NCBI RefSeq assembly: GCF_039990255.1
Contig: NZ_JBDXGG010000016.1
Span: 94,958-158,957, forward strand
DNA: 64,000 bases
Reading direction: 5' to 3'
Source: Nisaea sp.
GTDB lineage: Bacteria; Pseudomonadota; Alphaproteobacteria; Thalassobaculales; Thalassobaculaceae
The position numbers and the translations under genes are program-made. A model generated the notes under the pieces. That model was not told the origin of the DNA, ran no database searches, and saw only the letters and a list, made by a program, of their open reading frames with translations. Within the stretch, counting starts at the first letter, position 1; each line of letters opens with the position of its first letter. This document shows, piece after piece, positions 15,394 through 58,936 of this stretch.

Positions 15394-15453
15394 TTGCCAA
15401 GGCCCCTTTCCTTTTTCAGCGACGACGACTATTGTCTCGCGACTACCGACGAC

Positions 15454-15632
15454 CCTCAAGGGAGAGACCGGCCACATGGTCGGCGCCGAAGGAGCAACCG
15501 CCCCCGGAAACTCTCAGGCAAAAGGACCTTGAGGCGAGGAACCTCTGGAAAGCAGGCGGGAAACCGCCTCACCCACGGTGAAAGCCCGGCACAGAGTTCG
15601 CCGGGTGAATCTCTCAGGTTAGCGACAGAGGG
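15454..15632 (+). promoter_or_regulatory. tandem glycine riboswitch (two aptamers)
   Basis: Aptamer 1 has P1 cctcaag(15454-60)/cttgagg(15528-34), with 'GGAGAG...CGCCGAAGGAGCAA...CTCTCAGGCAAAAGGAC'. Aptamer 2 has P1 cctctg(15542-47)/cagagg(15626-31), with 'CTCTCAGGTTAGCGACAGAGG'. It lies directly upstream of gcvT. Confidence 0.9.
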
Positions 15633-15683
15633 GGCAGGTTCCGGCGTTTTGCCGGGGTGCCTTTACGCTGACCGGAGAGTGCC

Positions 15684-27219: not shown

Positions 27220-27295
27220 TCCGCACCTTTCCGCAAACCGGATATCGGACGCGCCTTCACCCGGCATGACGCATCATGCATATCGACATTTTATC

Positions 27296-27324
27296 TTGTT
27301 TTACACTTTTTACGTGTATATATT
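27296..27324 (+). promoter_or_regulatory. candidate sigma70-type promoter in an AT-rich patch upstream of the thaumatin-like gene
   Basis: TTGTTT (27296-301), a 17-nt spacer, then TATATT (27319-324). It is embedded in a locally AT-rich ~70-bp segment that is unusual for this genome. Confidence 0.3.
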
Positions 27325-27377
27325 TTGAATATCATATTACTCAACCCGCTTTGCCGTTCCGGAAAAGGAGATTTGGC

Positions 27378-28433
27378 ATGCTGGACTGGATTTCAGAGAG
27401 AAAACATCCACTCGCCTGCATCATCGGCGGACTCTTTGCAGTAGCAATCTTGTTGATCTCAACCCTCCCTGTACTTGCCCAGGACACCTCTACCCACCCA
27501 CGCCTCAAGATCATCAACGGATGCAGCAAAGCCATCTCCATCAATCACGTCGTCGGCGCCGGCGGGGGGACATTGACCGCCCCGAATCCGGCCATTCTGC
27601 AACCAAGCGGCCAGACCGGGGATTCCGTAACATTCAACATTCCGGACAAGGGTCTTGCCGGTACGCGGTTCTGGCCGAGCATGAAGGTACAATGCGCCGA
27701 CGGCAGCTCGGGCTGCTCTATCGGGGAAAGCGGCGGCCCCGGTCTCGCATGTCCCGGCGGGATCGGCTGCGCGCCTCCGGTCGACTCAAAATTCGAGGGA
27801 ACCTTCGGCTGCTTCGCGGCGGAAGCGGCTAAAGGCAATTGCCAGGTCAACCCGTCCGGAAACGGCGCCCCTCTTCCGGAGACGGATGGCTGGGACACCA
27901 GCATGGTCGATGGATATACGCTGCCCTACAAGGTCGAGATCAAGGGAAGCTGTCCGAACGGCCCGAAGAAAAACAAGATCGATTGCAGCGGCCTCAGCCT
28001 CTCCCAATGCCCTGTGAATGAAGATCTCAGCACCAACGGAGCCTATCCTGCACTCGCCAACGAGGATCTGACCCTCACCTTCCCAACATCGAGCGGCGGC
28101 GCGACCGACACCCAGACAGGCTGCTACTCCCCGTGCTCCAAGCTCACTACCGGGAACTGGCAGAACATCCCGAACCCACCATTCTCCGACGGGCCGACCA
28201 CTTACCAACCCTCCGATCCCCAGGCCGACTATTACTGCTGCGGCGGGTCGGTCGGCGTTGAAGCCTGCCGGAACGGCCCGGTGGTGAAGACCAGCTACGT
28301 GAAGATGATTCACGAGGTCTGCCCGCAGACCTACGCCTACGCCTATGACGACGGAACCGGCAATTTCTCCTGCCCGGCCACCGCCGAGACGATCTACGAA
28401 GTCACGTTCTTCTGCCCGCTGCAAGACAGTTAG
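27378..28433 (+). CDS. secreted thaumatin-family (PR-5/TLP-like) protein
   Basis: AAGGAG RBS 7 nt upstream. Signal peptide 'IIGGLFAVAILLISTLPVLA'. About 18 Cys in the mature part. Thaumatin landmarks: 'LKIINGCSKAISI', 'TRFWPS..C', 'DTSMVDGYTLPYKV', 'YYCC' and the C-terminal 'CPQTYAYAYDDGTGNFSCP...YEVTFFCP'. Confidence 0.8.
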   Translation: MLDWISERKHPLACIIGGLFAVAILLISTLPVLAQDTSTHPRLKIINGCSKAISINHVVGAGGGTLTAPNPAILQPSGQTGDSVTFNIPDKGLAGTRFWPSMKVQCADGSSGCSIGESGGPGLACPGGIGCAPPVDSKFEGTFGCFAAEAAKGNCQVNPSGNGAPLPETDGWDTSMVDGYTLPYKVEIKGSCPNGPKKNKIDCSGLSLSQCPVNEDLSTNGAYPALANEDLTLTFPTSSGGATDTQTGCYSPCSKLTTGNWQNIPNPPFSDGPTTYQPSDPQADYYCCGGSVGVEACRNGPVVKTSYVKMIHEVCPQTYAYAYDDGTGNFSCPATAETIYEVTFFCPLQDS

Positions 28434-30392: not shown

Positions 30393-31151
30393 ATGCTACG
30401 TCTCGTTTGTTTTATCCTCGTGTTCGTCTGTTCAATTCCGCGCAGCGGTGCGGCCGACATCCCGGTCGATATGGAGCTGGTCCTTGCGATCGACTGTTCC
30501 TCCAGCGTGGATGACGAGGAATTCGCCCTGCAGGTATCCGGCATGGCCAACGCATTCCGCGACCCGATGATCCAGGACGCCATCCAGAACGGTGTTGAGG
30601 GCGCCGTCGGAATCTCCATCATCCAGTGGTCCAGCGAGCGCTTCCAGAATGTGGCTGTCCGCTGGCGCCTGCTGACCGGCCCCGCCGATGCGGACAATCT
30701 GGCGAACGAGATCGAGGCGATGCCGCGCACCATCGGCACCGGCGCAACGTCGATTGCCAATGCCCTGCTTTTCTCCGCGAACAGCTTCAACGGGAACGGC
30801 ATGGAGGGATACCGCCGGGTTATCGACATGTCGGCGGACGGCGAGAACAATCAGGGCCTCGATATTCATATCGCACGGGCGCAGGTTCTGGCTCGCGGCA
30901 TCACCATCAACGGACTGGCAATCCGGAATGAGTTCCCCAATCTCGACATGTATTTCGAGGACCGGGTGATCGGGGGCGAGAGAGCTTTTACCGAAGTGGC
31001 GAAAGATTACGAAGACTACCGAAACGCCATCTTCAGAAAACTTTTCCGCGAATTACGGGACGTCCCGGTTGCAGATGGGTCCGGCCTTGACCCATCATGG
31101 AAAGAGGCACTGCTGATGCAGCAGCCTGAGGAGCGGCTTCAAACGCGGTAA
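30393..31151 (+). CDS. DUF1194 domain protein (vWA-like), paralog 1
   Basis: Signal peptide. 'VDMELVLAIDCSSSVDDEEF' is a MIDAS-like DxSxS. 'RRVIDMSADGENN' and 'GITINGLAI' match the DUF1194 pattern. Confidence 0.8.
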   Translation: MLRLVCFILVFVCSIPRSGAADIPVDMELVLAIDCSSSVDDEEFALQVSGMANAFRDPMIQDAIQNGVEGAVGISIIQWSSERFQNVAVRWRLLTGPADADNLANEIEAMPRTIGTGATSIANALLFSANSFNGNGMEGYRRVIDMSADGENNQGLDIHIARAQVLARGITINGLAIRNEFPNLDMYFEDRVIGGERAFTEVAKDYEDYRNAIFRKLFRELRDVPVADGSGLDPSWKEALLMQQPEERLQTR

Positions 31152-31164
31152 TCAGGGTGATGGT

Positions 31165-31854
31165 TTGAAAATTCTGAAAACGGTTCTGGGCCTGCTCCTG
31201 CTCTGCGTCGGGCCATCTTCCGTTGCCCAGAGTGAATATCCCGTAGATGTCGAACTGGTGCTCGCCATCGATTCTTCCGCCAGCGTCGACCGCGATGAAT
31301 TCGATCTGCAACTGCGCGGCCTCGCTCTCGCTTTCAACGACCCAGAAGTGCAGCAAGCCATCCGGGACGGCGCCTTTCAGGCCATCGCGGTAACCTTGGT
31401 CGAATGGTCAAGCGTCGACCGTCAGGCGGTCAACATTCCTTGGCGCCTGATCAATAGCACCGAAAGCGCAGAAGCCTTCGCTGCGGATGTCGCCGCCTCG
31501 GCCCGCATGGTCGATACCGGCGCCACCTCGATCTCGGCCGCTATCGCCTACAGTGTGCCCATGTTCGCCGTGAACGGTTTCGCCGGCCAGCGCCAGGTGA
31601 TCGATATTTCTGGCGACGGCTTTAACAATTCCGGCCGGTTGATGCAGGAAGGCCGCGAGATCGCAAGCAATGCCCGCGTCACCGTCAACGGGCTGGCTAT
31701 CCAGAATCAGGTGCTGGATCTCGGCGGCTATTTCGAGGAAACCGTCATCACCGGCCCCGGCGCCTTCGTCATCACGGCCGAGGACTACGAGGATTACATC
31801 AAGGCGATCCGGCAGAAATTACTGCGGGAAATCAAGGCGGCGCCGATTTCCTAA
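31165..31854 (+). CDS. DUF1194 domain protein (vWA-like), paralog 2
   Basis: TTG start. Signal peptide. 'VDVELVLAIDSSASVDRDEF', 'RQVIDISGDGFNN' and 'VTVNGLAI' are collinear with paralog 1. Confidence 0.8.
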   Translation: MKILKTVLGLLLLCVGPSSVAQSEYPVDVELVLAIDSSASVDRDEFDLQLRGLALAFNDPEVQQAIRDGAFQAIAVTLVEWSSVDRQAVNIPWRLINSTESAEAFAADVAASARMVDTGATSISAAIAYSVPMFAVNGFAGQRQVIDISGDGFNNSGRLMQEGREIASNARVTVNGLAIQNQVLDLGGYFEETVITGPGAFVITAEDYEDYIKAIRQKLLREIKAAPIS

Positions 31855-31901
31855 CGGCATACGTTGTTATAGACAACGCCTCCGCCCTGCACCAATAGAT
31901 A

Positions 31902-31930
31902 TTGAAATTGCAAGCCTCTCATTCTATTAG
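31902..31930 (+). promoter_or_regulatory. candidate promoter for the islet genes
   Basis: TTGAAA (31902-07), a 17-nt spacer, then TATTAG (31925-30). This is a weak match and is speculative. Confidence 0.25.
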
Positions 31931-31960
31931 TGTATTTTTACCTTAACAAGATTGCCAAAA

Positions 31961-34471
31961 ATGTCCGAAATGACAAAGACGCATTACGACATAATCGTTA
32001 TTATCCCACTAGAAGAGGAACTAGTTTCTTTCTTAGAGGTTTTTCCGTCAATTAGAAATTTAAGCACTGAAATAGAATTTCGACATGAAGTAGATTCTAG
32101 AGAATCTGGACTTCGGATACTTGCAGTGCAGCAATTAGATATGGGCCGAACAAGCGCAATGACAGCAACAATTGGAGCCCTTACTGATTTTACAACTGAT
32201 CTAATAGTAAATATTGGGATCGCCGGCGGAATAACAAATGATTATGTTCTTGGCGATATTTGCTACAGTGGAAACATAATTGACTTATATGATAACTCAA
32301 AAATATCTGATACTGATACTGGCGAACAAGTCACAGAATATTCCCCAAACAATTTTGAGACCCCACAATGCATAACATCCGCGCTTAATTTTTCTAGGGT
32401 TCAGCCAGATTTCTTGGCTAAATATAAAGAATGGCAATCTGAGAGAGAAGTTTTTGTAAAATCGTTAGTAAGTACGAAAATTACAAATAGAGATGGCGAC
32501 GATATTGAAATTGGGAAACCCACTACGAAAAACGGTAAAATAACATGCGGCATCGTCAGCAAGAGCGACTTCTACAATAATAAAATCAAAGGAATTGATA
32601 GGCGCTCGCTCGCAATTGACACTGAATCTGGCGGAATATTTGAAATTGCAAAAAAATATAAAGTATCATGCCTAGCTATAAGAGGAATTTCTGACTACGC
32701 AGATAAATCAAAAAACAAACTGGAAAAAGCAACGGGTGGACAAATTCGTCGTATTGCGGCAACGAATGCCGCGTCGTTTTTCCGACTTCAGTTAATTAAT
32801 CCATATTTTTTAAATGCCATTCATATCGTCCACACACAGAATCACCCAGAACACTCTCTTAATTCATATGAACAAAAAAATGACCCGCTCATCAATCTAA
32901 TCGCGTCGTCGAGCCAAGAAATTAAGAACCACCTGGAAAGAACATGCCCCGAGTATAGGTTACATGAAAAAGGGTACAGCCTACCTGTACCGCGCGTCAT
33001 TCCAATGAACTTAAAAACGAAGGAAGAAAAAAGCAGCTCTCCTATCGAATTAAAGAAAACATTACAAACAAACGATCGTGTAATTATTAAAATACCTCAT
33101 ACATTTCCAGAAAAAAGCTTACCCTGGATTATAGCTGATTCACTAATTTCGAGCGAAATTGACGAACGACAAACCGTTCCCATCATCATTAATGCAGACA
33201 ACATTAGAGGAGCCTCTGATACCATTGAGAAACTCTCATCAAAAGAAGCTATTGAATTAGCGGAAAGTAAAAAAATAACTTTAGTCGTTGTTTTGTACGA
33301 CTTTAATCCAAAAACAAAACACAGAGCCAATCTTGTTATCGATCAAATTAATAAATTTTCAAATATAAAATTTATTATAATATCAAGTGGGGAAGGCGAT
33401 ATTTATACTGAATCAAATTTTGAAGATTTAATCAATGCTAAACCATTCAAAATGTGTGGAATTTCCTTCAATGAAGTGACATTTTTTGTCGAAAAGCATT
33501 TCGATATGTCGATCAACGAGGCAGAAGTTGTAGCACTTCGACTTCGAGATACATTTAGAAAATATGCACTTGATGCTCATCCAACATATTTCGCGGGCAT
33601 TTCTCGAGAAACACTTGCAACATTATTACAAGCAAACCGTCGTTCTGAACTTATCGAGCTCGCCGTTGCTGGATATCTATCTTTTGTTGTTGCTGGAGAC
33701 AAAGAAAGCATACGATTAAGTCGCACGACTCGCGCTCGTTTTTTGACAAATCTGCTGATTAAAATGAAAGTAAACGGGGAGACGTTCACACACTCTGAGC
33801 TAGTAAAATTTGCAGAAGATTTCGCTGTGGAAAGTGACTTCAACATAAATCCACTTCAATTCATAAAATCATTTGAAGATTTCGGCATATTACACTTTAA
33901 TGGAAATGGAGTACAGATATCACTTCCATTTATTGAATCATATTTATTAGCAAATGCCCTTAGTAAAGATAGCACTCTTTCTGCCAGATATATAAAATTT
34001 GATAATAGCTTCGTTGATTACGCGACACTTGATATATACTCAGAAATAGGACCTTCAACAGAGATAATAGAAAAACTGGTTACAGCAGTTGATGGATGTA
34101 TTAGTAAGCTTACAACGAACACTCCGGATAACGATTACTTATTGAGTGACGAAGCAACCGCAGCAGGATTAAAACACCCCAAGCGTCTAGAGGCACTGCA
34201 AAACAACCTAGAGGCGGCCTCTAAGTCTGTCCTAAGTGGTGCTAGAAACGCCGAAGAAAAACAGAAAATACTTGATGCTCAAGATTTCGTACGCCGCTCC
34301 GTATCTCATTCATCTCACGAAAAACAAGATAATTATGATGATGACGGGTTCGAAGCAGAAGCCGCTGAATTTGTCGAATGTGTCACAATTTGGGGAATTT
34401 CAGTAGTTGTACTAGGTGCTGGGGCCGAACACCTAAAAGCACCGATTAAAAGAAAATTAGGAAAAAAATAA
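31961..34471 (+). CDS. PNP_UDP (MTA/SAH-nucleosidase-like) domain protein fused to a degenerate P-loop NTPase-like module and a helical C-terminal region; candidate defence protein
   Basis: ORF 31952..34471, with possible starts at TTG 31952, ATG 31961 or ATG 31970. The N-terminus is collinear with MTAN: 'IIVIIPLEEE', 'DLIVNIGIAGG', 'AIDTESGG' and 'LAIRGISDYAD'. The centre has 'RVIIKIPHTFPEKSL' (Walker-A position), 'ITLVVVLYDF' (Walker-B position) and 'FIIISSGE'. Codon usage is AT-rich. Confidence 0.8.
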   Translation: MSEMTKTHYDIIVIIPLEEELVSFLEVFPSIRNLSTEIEFRHEVDSRESGLRILAVQQLDMGRTSAMTATIGALTDFTTDLIVNIGIAGGITNDYVLGDICYSGNIIDLYDNSKISDTDTGEQVTEYSPNNFETPQCITSALNFSRVQPDFLAKYKEWQSEREVFVKSLVSTKITNRDGDDIEIGKPTTKNGKITCGIVSKSDFYNNKIKGIDRRSLAIDTESGGIFEIAKKYKVSCLAIRGISDYADKSKNKLEKATGGQIRRIAATNAASFFRLQLINPYFLNAIHIVHTQNHPEHSLNSYEQKNDPLINLIASSSQEIKNHLERTCPEYRLHEKGYSLPVPRVIPMNLKTKEEKSSSPIELKKTLQTNDRVIIKIPHTFPEKSLPWIIADSLISSEIDERQTVPIIINADNIRGASDTIEKLSSKEAIELAESKKITLVVVLYDFNPKTKHRANLVIDQINKFSNIKFIIISSGEGDIYTESNFEDLINAKPFKMCGISFNEVTFFVEKHFDMSINEAEVVALRLRDTFRKYALDAHPTYFAGISRETLATLLQANRRSELIELAVAGYLSFVVAGDKESIRLSRTTRARFLTNLLIKMKVNGETFTHSELVKFAEDFAVESDFNINPLQFIKSFEDFGILHFNGNGVQISLPFIESYLLANALSKDSTLSARYIKFDNSFVDYATLDIYSEIGPSTEIIEKLVTAVDGCISKLTTNTPDNDYLLSDEATAAGLKHPKRLEALQNNLEAASKSVLSGARNAEEKQKILDAQDFVRRSVSHSSHEKQDNYDDDGFEAEAAEFVECVTIWGISVVVLGAGAEHLKAPIKRKLGKK

Positions 34472-34515
34472 TAGAACTTTCCGCACGCATAATAGATAAA
34501 TGGACCTCATATTCT

Positions 34516-35028
34516 TTGAGAATAAATTTCGACCGTTTTAGGGAAGAATTTTCAGACGAGGCTTTTCTACAGAAACTCCCCGGAGATGAAAGCATTGAGC
34601 AAAAGAGAAAATTCACGCTAAATTTGGTTGACCTTATGGAGATCGAGTCAAAGTCCTATCCGTTTAAAAAAATCTTAGGCTATGTATGTGAGCAGGCTCG
34701 ACAAAATGTCCTAGCCGAGAGCCTTAGAAAAATTGACGTCTCCGGCAAAGTCGAAAAAATTATTCACGGGTCTTGGCTTACTGATATTGAAGCAGATCAA
34801 GGAAAACACTTACTAAAAGATGCGATAAAAAATCTCCCACATGCAGCCCTTCTTCGAATGACTTTATGTTCTCTTTATCTACATCGTATCTATTGGTCGC
34901 ATTGGAAAAAAGACCATAAAATAACATTACTTGAAGCAGCAAACGATGCGATTCGACCGCTCGGGCGAGAAATTAGTGCTTCAGAAATGAAAAAATTGAT
35001 TAAAAGCGAACCTTCAGAAGATGATTAA
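34516..35028 (+). CDS. hypothetical protein: either the partner of the nucleosidase-domain protein or its frameshifted C-terminal continuation
   Basis: 170-aa ORF from a TTG at 34516, with the same AT-rich composition. Its frame is open back to 34450 and overlaps the end of the upstream ORF across an A7 run. The first ATG comes only at the 'MEIESK' codon. Confidence 0.5.
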   Translation: MRINFDRFREEFSDEAFLQKLPGDESIEQKRKFTLNLVDLMEIESKSYPFKKILGYVCEQARQNVLAESLRKIDVSGKVEKIIHGSWLTDIEADQGKHLLKDAIKNLPHAALLRMTLCSLYLHRIYWSHWKKDHKITLLEAANDAIRPLGREISASEMKKLIKSEPSEDD

Positions 35029-35077
35029 CTTCTATAATTCCACATGCAGAAAACGTTTAACTCTCTGATCCCATACT

Positions 35078-36127
35078 TCAACCGCGCACGCCTTCGAACC
35101 CATCCAGAAATGCCGCCAGATTATCCCCGAGCTGATCGGAGATATAACCGCCCTCCTGCACCAGCAGGCTCGGATACCCGGCCTCCGAGATCGTACGGCC
35201 CATGCGGCGGAAGCCTTCCGTGGTGATCTTGCAGAAAGCCAACGGGTCTGCCTCTGAAGCGTCGAGGCCGAGGGCGACGACCAGCACGTCCGGCTTGAAG
35301 GCGGCCACGCTTTCCAGCGCGTCGGCGAGAATTTCGATATAGGCATCGTCGCCGGTGCCCTGGGGCAGTGGGTAATTCACGTTGCACCCGGCCCCCTCGC
35401 CTTCGCCCGTCTCGTGGCCGAAGCCGGTGAAGAAAGGATAATAGGTTGCCGGATCGCCATGCAGGGAGACGGTCTGCACGTCGCCGCGCTCATAGAAGAT
35501 GCCTTGCGTGCCGTTGCCGTGATGCACATCCACATCGAGGATCGCGACCTTTGCCGCTCCCTTGTCCCGCAAGCGCTGGGCCGCGATGGCGGAATTGTTC
35601 AGGAAGCAGAAGCCGCCGGCCTGGTCCGCATAGGCATGGTGCCCCGGAGGACGGCAAAGAGCGTAGAGATAGGCTCCCCTGTTCCCACCGTCGATATCCT
35701 GCACCAAAATGTCAGCAGCGGTTACCGCGACATCTGACGAGGCCAGAGCGCCTTTCCAGGTCCCCTCTCCGATCGGGCAAGCCGTGTCCGCCTGATAATG
35801 GCCTGACTGGGCGACGATATGCTGAGGCGGCTGCGCCATGTTGCGGCCGGAATGCACGTTCGGGATAATCTCGTCCGCATGGTCCGGCAGCGCGCACCAG
35901 CGCTCCCAGGCATTCTCCAGAAAGTCGAGATAACCCGCATCGTGAATCCGGGCCACCGGGCTGGCGCCGTGCGTGCTGGCCGGGGTCAGATCATGGCCGG
36001 CATCCGTCGCCGCCTTGAAGAGGATCTCCGCCCGTTCCGGACGCTCCGGACTCTGCACGATGGCGCCCCGCGTTATGAAGCGTTTCGGGGCATGCACCAC
36101 ATGCCCGTCTGTATAAATCACTCGCAT
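35078..36127 (-). CDS. histone deacetylase family protein (acetylpolyamine/acetoin-type amidohydrolase)
   Basis: 'CRPPGHHA' and 'ILDVDVHHGNGTQ' are zinc-deacetylase motifs. 349 aa. Confidence 0.85.
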   Translation of the reverse strand: MRVIYTDGHVVHAPKRFITRGAIVQSPERPERAEILFKAATDAGHDLTPASTHGASPVARIHDAGYLDFLENAWERWCALPDHADEIIPNVHSGRNMAQPPQHIVAQSGHYQADTACPIGEGTWKGALASSDVAVTAADILVQDIDGGNRGAYLYALCRPPGHHAYADQAGGFCFLNNSAIAAQRLRDKGAAKVAILDVDVHHGNGTQGIFYERGDVQTVSLHGDPATYYPFFTGFGHETGEGEGAGCNVNYPLPQGTGDDAYIEILADALESVAAFKPDVLVVALGLDASEADPLAFCKITTEGFRRMGRTISEAGYPSLLVQEGGYISDQLGDNLAAFLDGFEGVRG

Positions 36128-48826: not shown

Positions 48827-48916
48827 TATCATGCGCTGCTCAAAGCGGTTTCGGGTCCCGAAATTCGCGGAGATCGCTCAGCTTGACCACGGGCTTTTTG
48901 AATGTATTGTCGAAAC

Positions 48917-49108
48917 TGATGGTTTTCCTTAGGCGAGCGCCAAAGGAAATGAAAAGAGAACATGGTGCGGTGTACCCATTAGGGGCCAAATCCATGGCTG
49001 CCCCCGCAACTGTAGGCGGATAGCGGACGTCGACGACACCACTGACTGGAAACAGTCGGGAAGGTAGACGAACTGCTGATATCCGTGAGCCAGGAGACCT
49101 GCCATCGC
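48917..49108 (+). promoter_or_regulatory. cobalamin (B12) riboswitch
   Basis: P1 gatgg(48919-23)/ccatc(49102-06). Core 'AAAAGAGAACATGGTG...CCCCCGCAACTGTA', 'CCACTGACTGGAAACAGTCGGGAAGG', and the B12 box 'GAGCCAGGAGACCTGCC' (49087-49103). Confidence 0.9.
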
Positions 49109-49231
49109 AAGAACTTGCAACCGGACGGGGTGCTTCGGGCGACGCAATGAAAGACATCACAGTTTTTCATTACGAAAGCGGTGGCGGAAATACGCCACGC
49201 TGTCCCAGCGCCTCGGCAGTGGAGATGGGAC

Positions 49232-58402: not shown

Positions 58403-58936
58403 TTACTTCTTCTTGCCTTCCTTGCGGAGGATGGTCTCGGTCTCGTACTTAACACCCTTGCCCTTGAAGGGCTCCGGCGGACGATACCCGCGGATCTCAG
58501 CCGCGATCTGACCAACCTTCTGCTTGTCGGCACCATGGATCGAAATCGCCGTCGGACGCTCACACTTCATGGTGATGCCTTCCGGGATCGGGTAGTTCAC
58601 CGGGTGACTGAAACCGAGGGCAAGAACCAGGTTCTTGCCTTCGACAGCAGCACGATAACCGACGCCGTTGATTTCCAGGTTGATCGTGAAACCGTCCGAC
58701 ACACCCGTTACAGCGTTCTGGACGCGAGCACGCATGGTGCCCCACATCGCCCGGGAACGCTTGGAGGCATTCTTCGGCTTCACGGTGACCAGGTTGTCCT
58801 CGATCACGATGTCTACAGCATCGCTGAGCGGAACAGAAAGCTGGCCGAGTTTGCCCTTCGCGGAGAAGACGTCAGCGCCGATTTCGGCGGTAACGCCGCT
58901 CGGAAGAGCGACTGGGTTTTTACCAATACGTGACAT
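58403..58936 (-). CDS. rplF: 50S ribosomal protein L6
   Basis: '[15 protein letters not shown]' and '[14 protein letters not shown]'. Confidence 0.97.

Follow-up and report, generated by a model that had tools for sequence, protein, structure and literature searches.

We analysed a window of 64,000 nucleotides from Nisaea sp. (NCBI RefSeq assembly GCF_039990255.1, contig NZ_JBDXGG010000016.1, positions 94,958 to 158,957 of the forward strand; "the window" means this whole stretch throughout) and describe here a gene at its centre that encodes a nucleosidase domain joined to a NOD-like module, a candidate single-protein immune system whose copy in this genome is broken by a frameshift. The G+C content of the window is about 60% but falls to 34–43% between 31,860 and 35,075, and the following features make up this region and its borders:

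31860–35075, no strand: island of low G+C (34–43% compared to about 60% in the genome) with only this one gene inside
31952–34471, forward strand: upstream open reading frame (ORF) of the split gene, 839 residues when read from TTG 31952
34462–34468, forward strand: run of seven A (A7), site of the -1 frameshift, where GGA AAA AAA TAA closes the ORF
34480–35028, forward strand: detached 3' part of the gene, located by tblastn to the homologue P0004 and from the ORF list
up to 31854: DUF1194 gene ending at the left flank of the island
35078–36127, reverse strand: Hist_deacetyl gene at the right flank of the island

In the public annotation the upstream ORF starts at ATG 31961 and its product has 836 residues. 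The minus strand of the long ORF contains only two ORFs of at least 60 residues (77 and 89 residues), neither with any sign of being a gene, an Rfam scan of the island found no RNA family, and the promoter and terminator scans gave no more matches than in shuffled sequence. At the island edges of the window locus we found no flanking direct repeats, no tRNA gene and no integrase. Directly upstream of the island two paralogous DUF1194/vWA-like genes, which are 45% identical, stand in tandem at 30393–31151 and 31165–31854, and this pair is not conserved near the gene at other loci.

Using tblastn and the sequence of P0004 (1,027 residues) as query, residues 8–840 are found in one frame up to 34459 and residues 848–1024 in another frame from 34480 on. 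The upstream ORF aligns with the first of these parts and a 170-residue ORF at 34516–35028, which public assemblies annotate as a protein of its own, with the second (39% identity over 177 residues). One additional A in the A7 run gives a continuous ORF of 1,025 residues whose junction, GKKIIELSARIIDKW, matches the homologues. The full gene codes for a single protein of about 1,025 residues consisting of a PNP domain, a STAND/NLR-like module and a helical C-terminal domain, and the homologues have a length of 1,020–1,095 residues. In the window copy the gene is split into 839 and 170 residues, by which the last approximately 186 residues, present in every intact homologue, are cut off; the first-pass annotation, made from the letters of the window and its ORFs, did not mention this break.

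The same split is present in public records, with the 836-residue product on five contigs and the 170-residue product on six. Four contigs with the 836-residue product were examined, and one of them, from assembly GCA_039964065.1, matches the window without a single difference over 9,147 bases and ends where the window continues. A 3.3-kb contig binned as 'Balneola sp.' encodes part of the product, up to the same GKK stop. As the same split occurs on several contigs, the break appears to be a true allele and not a chance error, and the window copy is most likely the result of a lineage-specific deletion of one nucleotide (A8 to A7) and therewith a recently inactivated or altered allele, probably a recent and defective pseudogene. 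An assembly or sequencing artefact in an organism carrying an intact A8 would agree with the position of the single-base break, since a run of seven A is a classic site of homopolymer errors, with the likewise broken ORFs at several loci of the family from long-read-style metagenome-assembled genomes (MAGs), and with the fact that a systematic homopolymer error is possible across assemblies of related data. However, the identical split into 836 and 170 residues on at least four contigs, including GCA_039964065.1 and the separately binned 3.3-kb contig, and the in-frame reading of four other A7 runs in the gene make such a miscall unlikely. We also considered a functional frameshift, in which ribosomal or transcriptional slippage would give a little full-length protein and thus a low dose of a toxic effector. 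The run A_AAA_AAA has precisely the register of a -1 slippery heptamer and is immediately followed by TAA, and the -1 product would read ...GKKIIELSARIIDKW, which is the sequence of the repaired ORF and is homologous to the intact relatives. But A-runs are common in this AT-rich gene, and programmed recoding is argued against by the lack of a downstream stimulatory structure (z = 0.63) and by 30 homologous genes, all of them single ORFs, in which no slippery site is conserved here, so that we regard slippage as very improbable. As a separate observation, the 'Balneola sp.' contig, on which the gene product is recorded as MEP1150930.1 (P0001), has identical DNA in a chromosome of alphaproteobacterial type with about 60% G+C, and the placement of this low-GC contig in the 'Balneola sp.' MAG is probably a composition-driven mis-binning.

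The N-terminal part of the protein contains the following features, with the equivalent positions of the E. coli MTA/SAH nucleosidase (MTAN) where they apply:

31991–32806, forward strand: PNP_UDP_1/MTAN-fold nucleosidase domain, residues 14–285 (PF01048, Foldseek, PADLOC)
31991–32020, forward strand: motif IIVIIPLEEE, residues 14–23
32012–32020, forward strand: E21-E22-E23 of PLEEE, with E23 at MTAN Glu12 in the hhalign register
residues 63–72, forward strand: motif DMGRTSAMTA
32201–32230, forward strand: motif LIVNIGIAGG, residues 84–93
32216–32227, forward strand: G89-I90-A91-G92, equivalent to MTAN G75-S76-A-G78 with the MTAN Ser replaced by Ile
32405–32467, forward strand: extra alpha-helix, residues 152–172 (secondary structure of the model, 20-residue gap in hhalign)
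32612–32629, forward strand: motif AIDTES, residues 221–226
32618–32629, forward strand: D223-T224-E225-S226, equivalent to MTAN E172-M173-E174-A in the HMMER and hhalign registers
32672–32704, forward strand: motif LAIRGISDYAD, residues 241–251
32681–32695, forward strand: R244-G-I-S247-D248, equivalent to MTAN R193-A-I-S196-D197, with D248 as predicted general acid

The N-terminal domain is an MTAN-like nucleosidase fold, as the first-pass annotation had proposed from the order of five motifs, all of which we found at the residues and nucleotides it had given. The Pfam family PF01048 (PNP_UDP_1) matches residues 14–276 with E=1.5e-12 and 47.8 bits, well above the curated cut-off of 25.1, and the family profile detects MTANs of the PDB with a best E=1.7e-12. 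All PDB matches obtained by phmmer and with the family profile are MTA/SAH nucleosidases, futalosine hydrolases or DeoD-type phosphorylases. An AlphaFold2 model of residues 1–298, built on 17 sequences, reached a pLDDT of 87 and a pTM of 0.88, and in a Foldseek search with the PNP model against the PDB the best 50 matches were all MTAN or futalosine hydrolase (E 8e-18), with target-normalised TM values of 0.81–0.83. The superposition that had been suggested for MTAN and Cap17 could in this way be done for MTAN, but no solved immune PNP (Cap17 or DtcC) was found in the PDB by sequence search or among the top Foldseek matches. The proposed collinearity with MTAN holds as well, as hhalign aligns residues 14–252 with residues 3–201 of the E. 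coli enzyme with a probability of 96%; this register is to be taken as a lead, which agrees with the HMMER alignments to the MTANs of the PDB. An insert of about 90 residues between the GIAGG strand and the acidic motif had been overstated, since the aligned span of the PNP domain is 239 residues compared to 199 in MTAN and the net excess of about 40 residues is distributed over four gaps of about 7, 20, 10 and 5 residues. The largest piece of this excess is the confidently modelled helix of residues 152–172, in which W161 is kept in 100 of 101 relatives and which can also be aligned in P0179, an immune-type PNP outside the family.

To look at the catalytic positions we aligned 100 full-length representatives, obtained by exhaustive HMMER searching, with the repaired window protein; in the PNP domain they are 27–50% identical to it. 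In the hhalign register the equivalences to E. coli MTAN are E23 to Glu12, I90 to Ser76, D223 to Glu172, T224 to Met173, E225 to Glu174, R244 to Arg193, S247 to Ser196 and D248 to Asp197. In the family alignment E23 is kept in all 99 ungapped relatives, position 223 is acidic in 101 of 101 sequences, E225, R244 and D248 are each present in all 101, and G89, D97, R217 and K254 are likewise invariant. A loss of acidic residues at the catalytic positions, which would have spoken against a nucleosidase, is therefore not seen; these residues are invariant. One position that the earlier reading had not flagged is I90, present in 100 of 101 sequences, which gives GIAGG where MTAN has GSAGG. Four basic residues, K117, R217, K254 and R266, are invariant in the family, and this conservation suggests a phosphorylated ligand, the identity of which is not fixed by them.

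In order to see whether the domain lies closer to immune or to housekeeping enzymes, we compared it with both. The NCBIfam equivalogs for MtnN, NF004079 and TIGR01704, match only below their cut-offs (39.2 vs 169 bits and 22.5 vs 73.8 bits). With the N-terminal profile A5, searched against 5.8 billion clusters and against the PDB, the best protein outside the family is P0177, a PNP + SAVED fusion with 98 bits, followed by P0178 and P0179 with 92 and 87 bits, both consisting of PNP only, and by the further PNP + SAVED proteins P0180, P0181 and P0184 with 76, 75 and 64 bits, compared to 50 bits for the best MTAN of the PDB. P0177 directly adjoins a DncV-like CD-NTase with an AGS_C domain, because of which we take its locus as a CBASS operon. 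The GIAG motif is common to the family, P0177 and P0179, and the extended pattern SDYAD..K..LE....R..AA.NAA.F, located after the catalytic Asp, is common to the family and P0179, while E. coli MTAN has GSAGG and SDVADQQ at the corresponding sites. The PADLOC models for a CBASS PN-superfamily effector and for the candidate PDC-M60C match 15 of 15 family members. By this proxy the PNP domain would belong with the immune, Cap17-type PNPs rather than with the housekeeping ones. Domains of the Cap17 clade, a set of 1,038 genes in Rousset et al. 2023, are ATP/dATP nucleosidases which also occur N-terminally in Avs/NLR-like proteins, and Cap17, DtcC and the eukaryotic PNP domains assayed there cleaved adenine nucleotides (bioRxiv 10.1101/2023.01.24.525353).

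The substrate might nevertheless differ, and the domain could be a competent N-glycosidase that acts on NAD+, on another nucleotide or on a nucleic-acid base and leads to arrest by another route. Among proteins of solved structure the closest relatives have MTA, SAH and futalosine as substrates, the place of Ser76 is taken by an Ile here, and the invariant basic residues would be compatible with more than one phosphorylated ligand. As the Cap17-clade PNPs that were assayed cleaved adenine nucleotides (bioRxiv 10.1101/2023.01.24.525353) and the nearest relatives outside the family are CBASS PNP effectors, we give such a different substrate a small, though not negligible, chance.

The remaining part of the long ORF is made up as follows:

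32987–33466, forward strand: P-loop-NTPase-like alpha/beta domain, residues ~346–505 (strand and helix order of the model, Foldseek)
33095–33127, forward strand: degenerate P-loop position, residues 382–392, PHTFPEKSLPW, located between the first core strand and the next helix of the model
33281–33301, forward strand: Walker-B-like strand, residues 444–450, LVVVLYD, with an unconserved acidic position
33467–33967, forward strand: helical domain, residues 506–610, and winged-helix domain, residues 611–672 (model, PF24406)
33968–34468, forward strand: first part of the variable all-helical C-terminal region, residues 673–839 (model), the presumed sensor

In the model of residues 299–839 (pLDDT 78) a linker helix is followed by an alpha/beta domain, then by a helical bundle and a winged helix, and finally by more helices. 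A Foldseek search of the PDB with this part retrieved NOD2, NAIP5, NLRP3/7, Avs4, archaeal AAA+ proteins, Cdc6/Orc1, RuvB and clamp loaders (RFC) with E values from 4e-7 to 1e-4, a probability of about 1.0 and TM values of 0.3–0.47, which are low as expected for multi-domain matches. The winged helix is also recognised by PF24406 (nSTAND_NTPase4), a model of only 58 residues, which matches 13 of 14 family members (best E=4e-10) and residues 611–665 of the window protein with E=2e-4 and 21.6 bits, below the gathering cut-off of 27. From the order of domains in the model, the Foldseek matches and PF24406, the tripartite module of nucleotide-binding domain (NBD), helical domain and winged helix is present.

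STAND and AAA+ proteins carry GxxxxGK[ST] in the loop that leads from the first core strand to the next helix. At this position the family has the consensus P-R-[TSN]-Y-P-D-x-[SGA]-L-[PA]-W, in which the position of the Lys is unconserved, and a Walker A motif G....GK[ST] was found there in 0 of 164 relatives and in 0 of 34 proteins translated from related loci. The Walker B pattern hhhhD[DE] is missing as well, with D46/E15/N9/S5/A5/Y4 in the acidic column 449 among 101 sequences and a Tyr in the window protein. The family thus has a module with a NOD-like fold that fails the motif tests of an active STAND NTPase and is probably without canonical NTP binding; we do not class it among the STAND ATPases, and 'NLR-like' is used here to describe its probable way of working and not as a family assignment. 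For the C-terminal region we found no Pfam match and detected no TPR, LRR or WD repeats. The mean pairwise identity is highest in the helical domain of residues 506–610 (0.50) and lies at 0.27–0.36 in the other regions, with 0.28 in the NTPase-like domain and the lowest value, 0.27, in the C-terminal helical region. This pattern would fit with an NTPase-like domain freed from enzymatic constraint and a C-terminal sensor that varies.

The gene was found in 33 of 185,579 GTDB species representatives, all of them Alphaproteobacteria and including Sphingomonadales, Hyphomicrobiales, Acetobacteraceae and Inquilinus, and on one IMG/VR contig. The exhaustive HMMER search yielded 370 representatives at E<=1e-3, and the PNP domain is present in 100 of 100 full-length ones; the best 150 of 370 (HMMER) and the best 120 of 235 (word-indexed) matches of the C-terminal profile were all PNP-bearing proteins or fragments, and no other N-terminal effector on the same sensor scaffold was seen among them. 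At 32 of 34 loci the G+C content of the gene is below that of its flanks, for example 0.42 vs 0.73 and 0.45 vs 0.70. An all-against-all BLAST of 429 neighbouring ORFs revealed no conserved partner gene, with no neighbour family in more than 4 of 40 loci, and an apparent neighbour common to the window and the loci L016, L030 and L034 failed a direct test. Among 111 ORFs within 3.5 kb of the gene at 38 loci are type I restriction-modification genes, HamB (Hachiman), a CBASS phospholipase, DUF4062, GT4-conflict, transposases, resolvases and integrases. The Novosphingobium copy is carried as cargo by a P2-like prophage, where it lies between the tail gene gpD and an ogr-type activator. In the defence island of P0012 its neighbours are an M78-UvrD-PDDEXK protein, a ubiquitin-like Bub cassette and a fusion of caspase and helicase. 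At other loci, the window included, it is a bare single-gene insertion between housekeeping genes. We conclude that the gene is a single-gene cassette that moves horizontally among Alphaproteobacteria.

This distribution also bears on a housekeeping role, in which a metabolic or metabolically regulated MTA/SAH or purine nucleosidase would be fused to a regulatory domain. Public records do call these proteins 'MTA/SAH nucleosidase family protein' or 'nucleoside phosphorylase', and there is the weak NCBIfam MTAN match of 39 bits. But this match is far below its equivalog cut-off, the gene is restricted to a few species and foreign in G+C to its hosts, it occurs in prophage and defence-island contexts and as an NLR-like fusion, and its scores are nearer to CBASS effectors than to MTANs, all of which makes a housekeeping function extremely improbable and the current labels misleading for these proteins.

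Some observations were made at individual loci. The P2-like prophage spans 2462–22606 of locus L001 and carries the PNP gene together with five unannotated small ORFs, and elsewhere in the same locus there is a gene with DUF4238, a domain with published anti-phage activity. The insertion of the Novosphingobium gene at gpD–ogr does not correspond to the P2 old/tin hotspot, since the hotspot validated in PMC9122126 is gpA–gpQ. The P0012 island (L004, 1–7519) has a Multi_ubiq/ThiF/BubE cassette and a caspase (Peptidase_C14)-DEAD helicase fusion of 1,034 residues.

Taken together we consider it rather probable that the intact gene encodes a one-protein, NLR-like abortive-infection system with a Cap17-type nucleosidase as effector, a P-loop-less NOD and a variable helical sensor, which in the window is present as a frameshifted copy. 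The N-terminal placement of the nucleosidase in a horizontally mobile, partnerless NLR-like protein fits with an effector role. For the family, the earlier idea of a nucleosidase used as a toxic effector is partly supported by this placement, by the MTAN fold with its invariant residues and by the grouping with immune PNPs; for this particular genome the frameshift makes such a use doubtful.

The hydrolytic activity, substrate, trigger, activation by oligomerisation and defence role that we infer for the intact protein could be connected as follows. The C-terminal and NOD region would recognise a ligand derived from the invader, upon which the protein would oligomerise without a need for ATP and bring its PNP domains together. 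Enzymes of the PNP fold, MTAN as a dimer and PNPs as trimers and hexamers, are obligate oligomers whose active sites lie at the subunit interfaces. Since the fold is active only as an oligomer, the gathering of the PNP domains would matter. The activated nucleosidase would then split adenine nucleotides at their N-glycosidic bond, with ATP and dATP as the most likely substrates, D248 as general acid and with E23, E225 and R244 positioning the water and the ribose. As a result the energy and dNTP pools would collapse and the infection would be aborted, with the cell being killed or arrested.

Several points weigh against this interpretation. The placement with the immune clade is a proxy drawn from bit scores and shared motifs, and the Ile at the position of MTAN Ser76 means that the water-activating network differs from that of MTAN. 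The STAND-like assignment is drawn from a model of moderate confidence (pLDDT 78), low TM values and a Pfam match of 58 residues, and a sequence profile of the C-terminal 540–730 residues found no solved structure in the PDB (best E=0.44). A NOD that lacks the P-loop may not oligomerise like Avs and NLR proteins. Defence genes are near the gene at some loci only, and the window's own copy is truncated and may do nothing.

A more far-reaching idea, which we put forward with clear reservation, is that the family is an immune sensor that does not bind any nucleotide, in which PRTYPDxSLPW replaces the P-loop, and that sensing and oligomerisation would be independent of the ATP pool its own effector destroys. 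If true, a suicide enzyme that depletes ATP would be governed by an 'ATP-blind' switch, and the family would be the one-protein equivalent of receptors with inactive STAND modules, which until now have been known from multi-gene systems only. PNP-NLR fusions as such are already published; the new element is the P-loop-less NOD fused directly to the effector.

A comparison with known systems shows where the family stands. With the immune ATP nucleosidases of the Cap17/DtcC type, as found in CBASS, Detocs, Avs/NLR-like, pAgo and DRT8 systems, it shares the PF01048 fold with the catalytic Asp kept, and its nearest relatives outside the family are the PNP-SAVED proteins of CBASS operons, with GIAG and SDYAD..K..LE common to both. 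It differs from them in being fused to a P-loop-less NOD and not to SAVED, SLOG, a receiver domain or a canonical STAND ATPase, and in having no signalling partner gene. As in PNP-Avs proteins, the PNP domain is N-terminal to the sensor module (bioRxiv 10.1101/2023.01.24.525353). The overall arrangement also resembles Avs and bacterial NLR-like STAND proteins (Avs4, PDB 8dgf), which likewise combine in one polypeptide an N-terminal enzymatic effector, the NBD-helical-winged-helix order and a variable C-terminus and form mobile single-gene cassettes, and the top structural matches include Avs4 and NLRs of animals. Unlike Avs, the family has no Walker A and a degenerate Walker B, its helical C-terminal region of about 350 residues has no detectable TPR, LRR or WD repeats, and it shows no similarity at the sequence level to any solved STAND protein.

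The closest enzymes of known structure, E. coli MtnN/Pfs and futalosine hydrolase, have the same fold (TM about 0.8), and in MtnN the motifs are collinear and equivalents of Glu12, Glu172, Glu174, Arg193, Ser196 and Asp197 are present. The family differs in its identity of only about 15%, in about 40 extra residues including the helix 152–172, in the exchange of Ser76 to Ile and in an added conserved C-terminal motif of K254, E258 and R266, and its proteins are neither stand-alone enzymes of 230 residues nor vertically inherited. A loss of NTPase motifs has been described for iSTAND and iSTAND2, the predicted invader-sensing part of three-gene MoxR-vWA conflict systems (Kaur et al., eLife 2021, PMC8195603). 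Our family resembles them in having a STAND-derived module without NTPase motifs but differs in that the inactive module is fused to the effector in one gene and has no Pfam-level match to them; no MoxR or vWA partner is conserved across 40 loci or present among the 25 most frequent neighbour families listed. PF24406 nSTAND_NTPase4 is in turn similar as its model matches the winged helix of residues 611–665 in 13 of 14 members, with the difference that it covers 58 residues only and scores the window protein below the gathering cut-off.

The class of PNP-type nucleosidases that act as immune effectors, from bacteria to fungi and sponges, has been recognised only recently, and we found no description of how these enzymes are switched on inside NLR-like proteins. 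With one gene, a few hundred sequences and a restriction to Alphaproteobacteria the family might be a compact model for this question. Its nucleotide switch is lost and yet the helical and winged-helix core is the best conserved part, so that it could reveal whether an NLR-type assembly is possible without ATP, and in what way oligomerisation switches on an enzyme that depends, by its fold, on a partner subunit. For this genome the message is smaller, as the copy is frameshifted and probably non-functional.

A few other features of the window are unrelated to this gene. An ORF at 27276–28433 has a counterpart on an identical public contig with a thaumatin-family domain (PF00314), which is unusual in a bacterial chromosome. 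On the minus strand at 58426–58517 ARAGORN predicts a 'tRNA-Asp' of 92 nucleotides with the anticodon atc, which is probably a false positive, since Rfam has no tRNA at this position at its gathering threshold. Tandem glycine riboswitch aptamers (RF00504, 73.6 and 37.7 bits) are located at 15449–15638 and a cobalamin riboswitch (Rfam RF00174, 111.9 bits) at 48903–49120.

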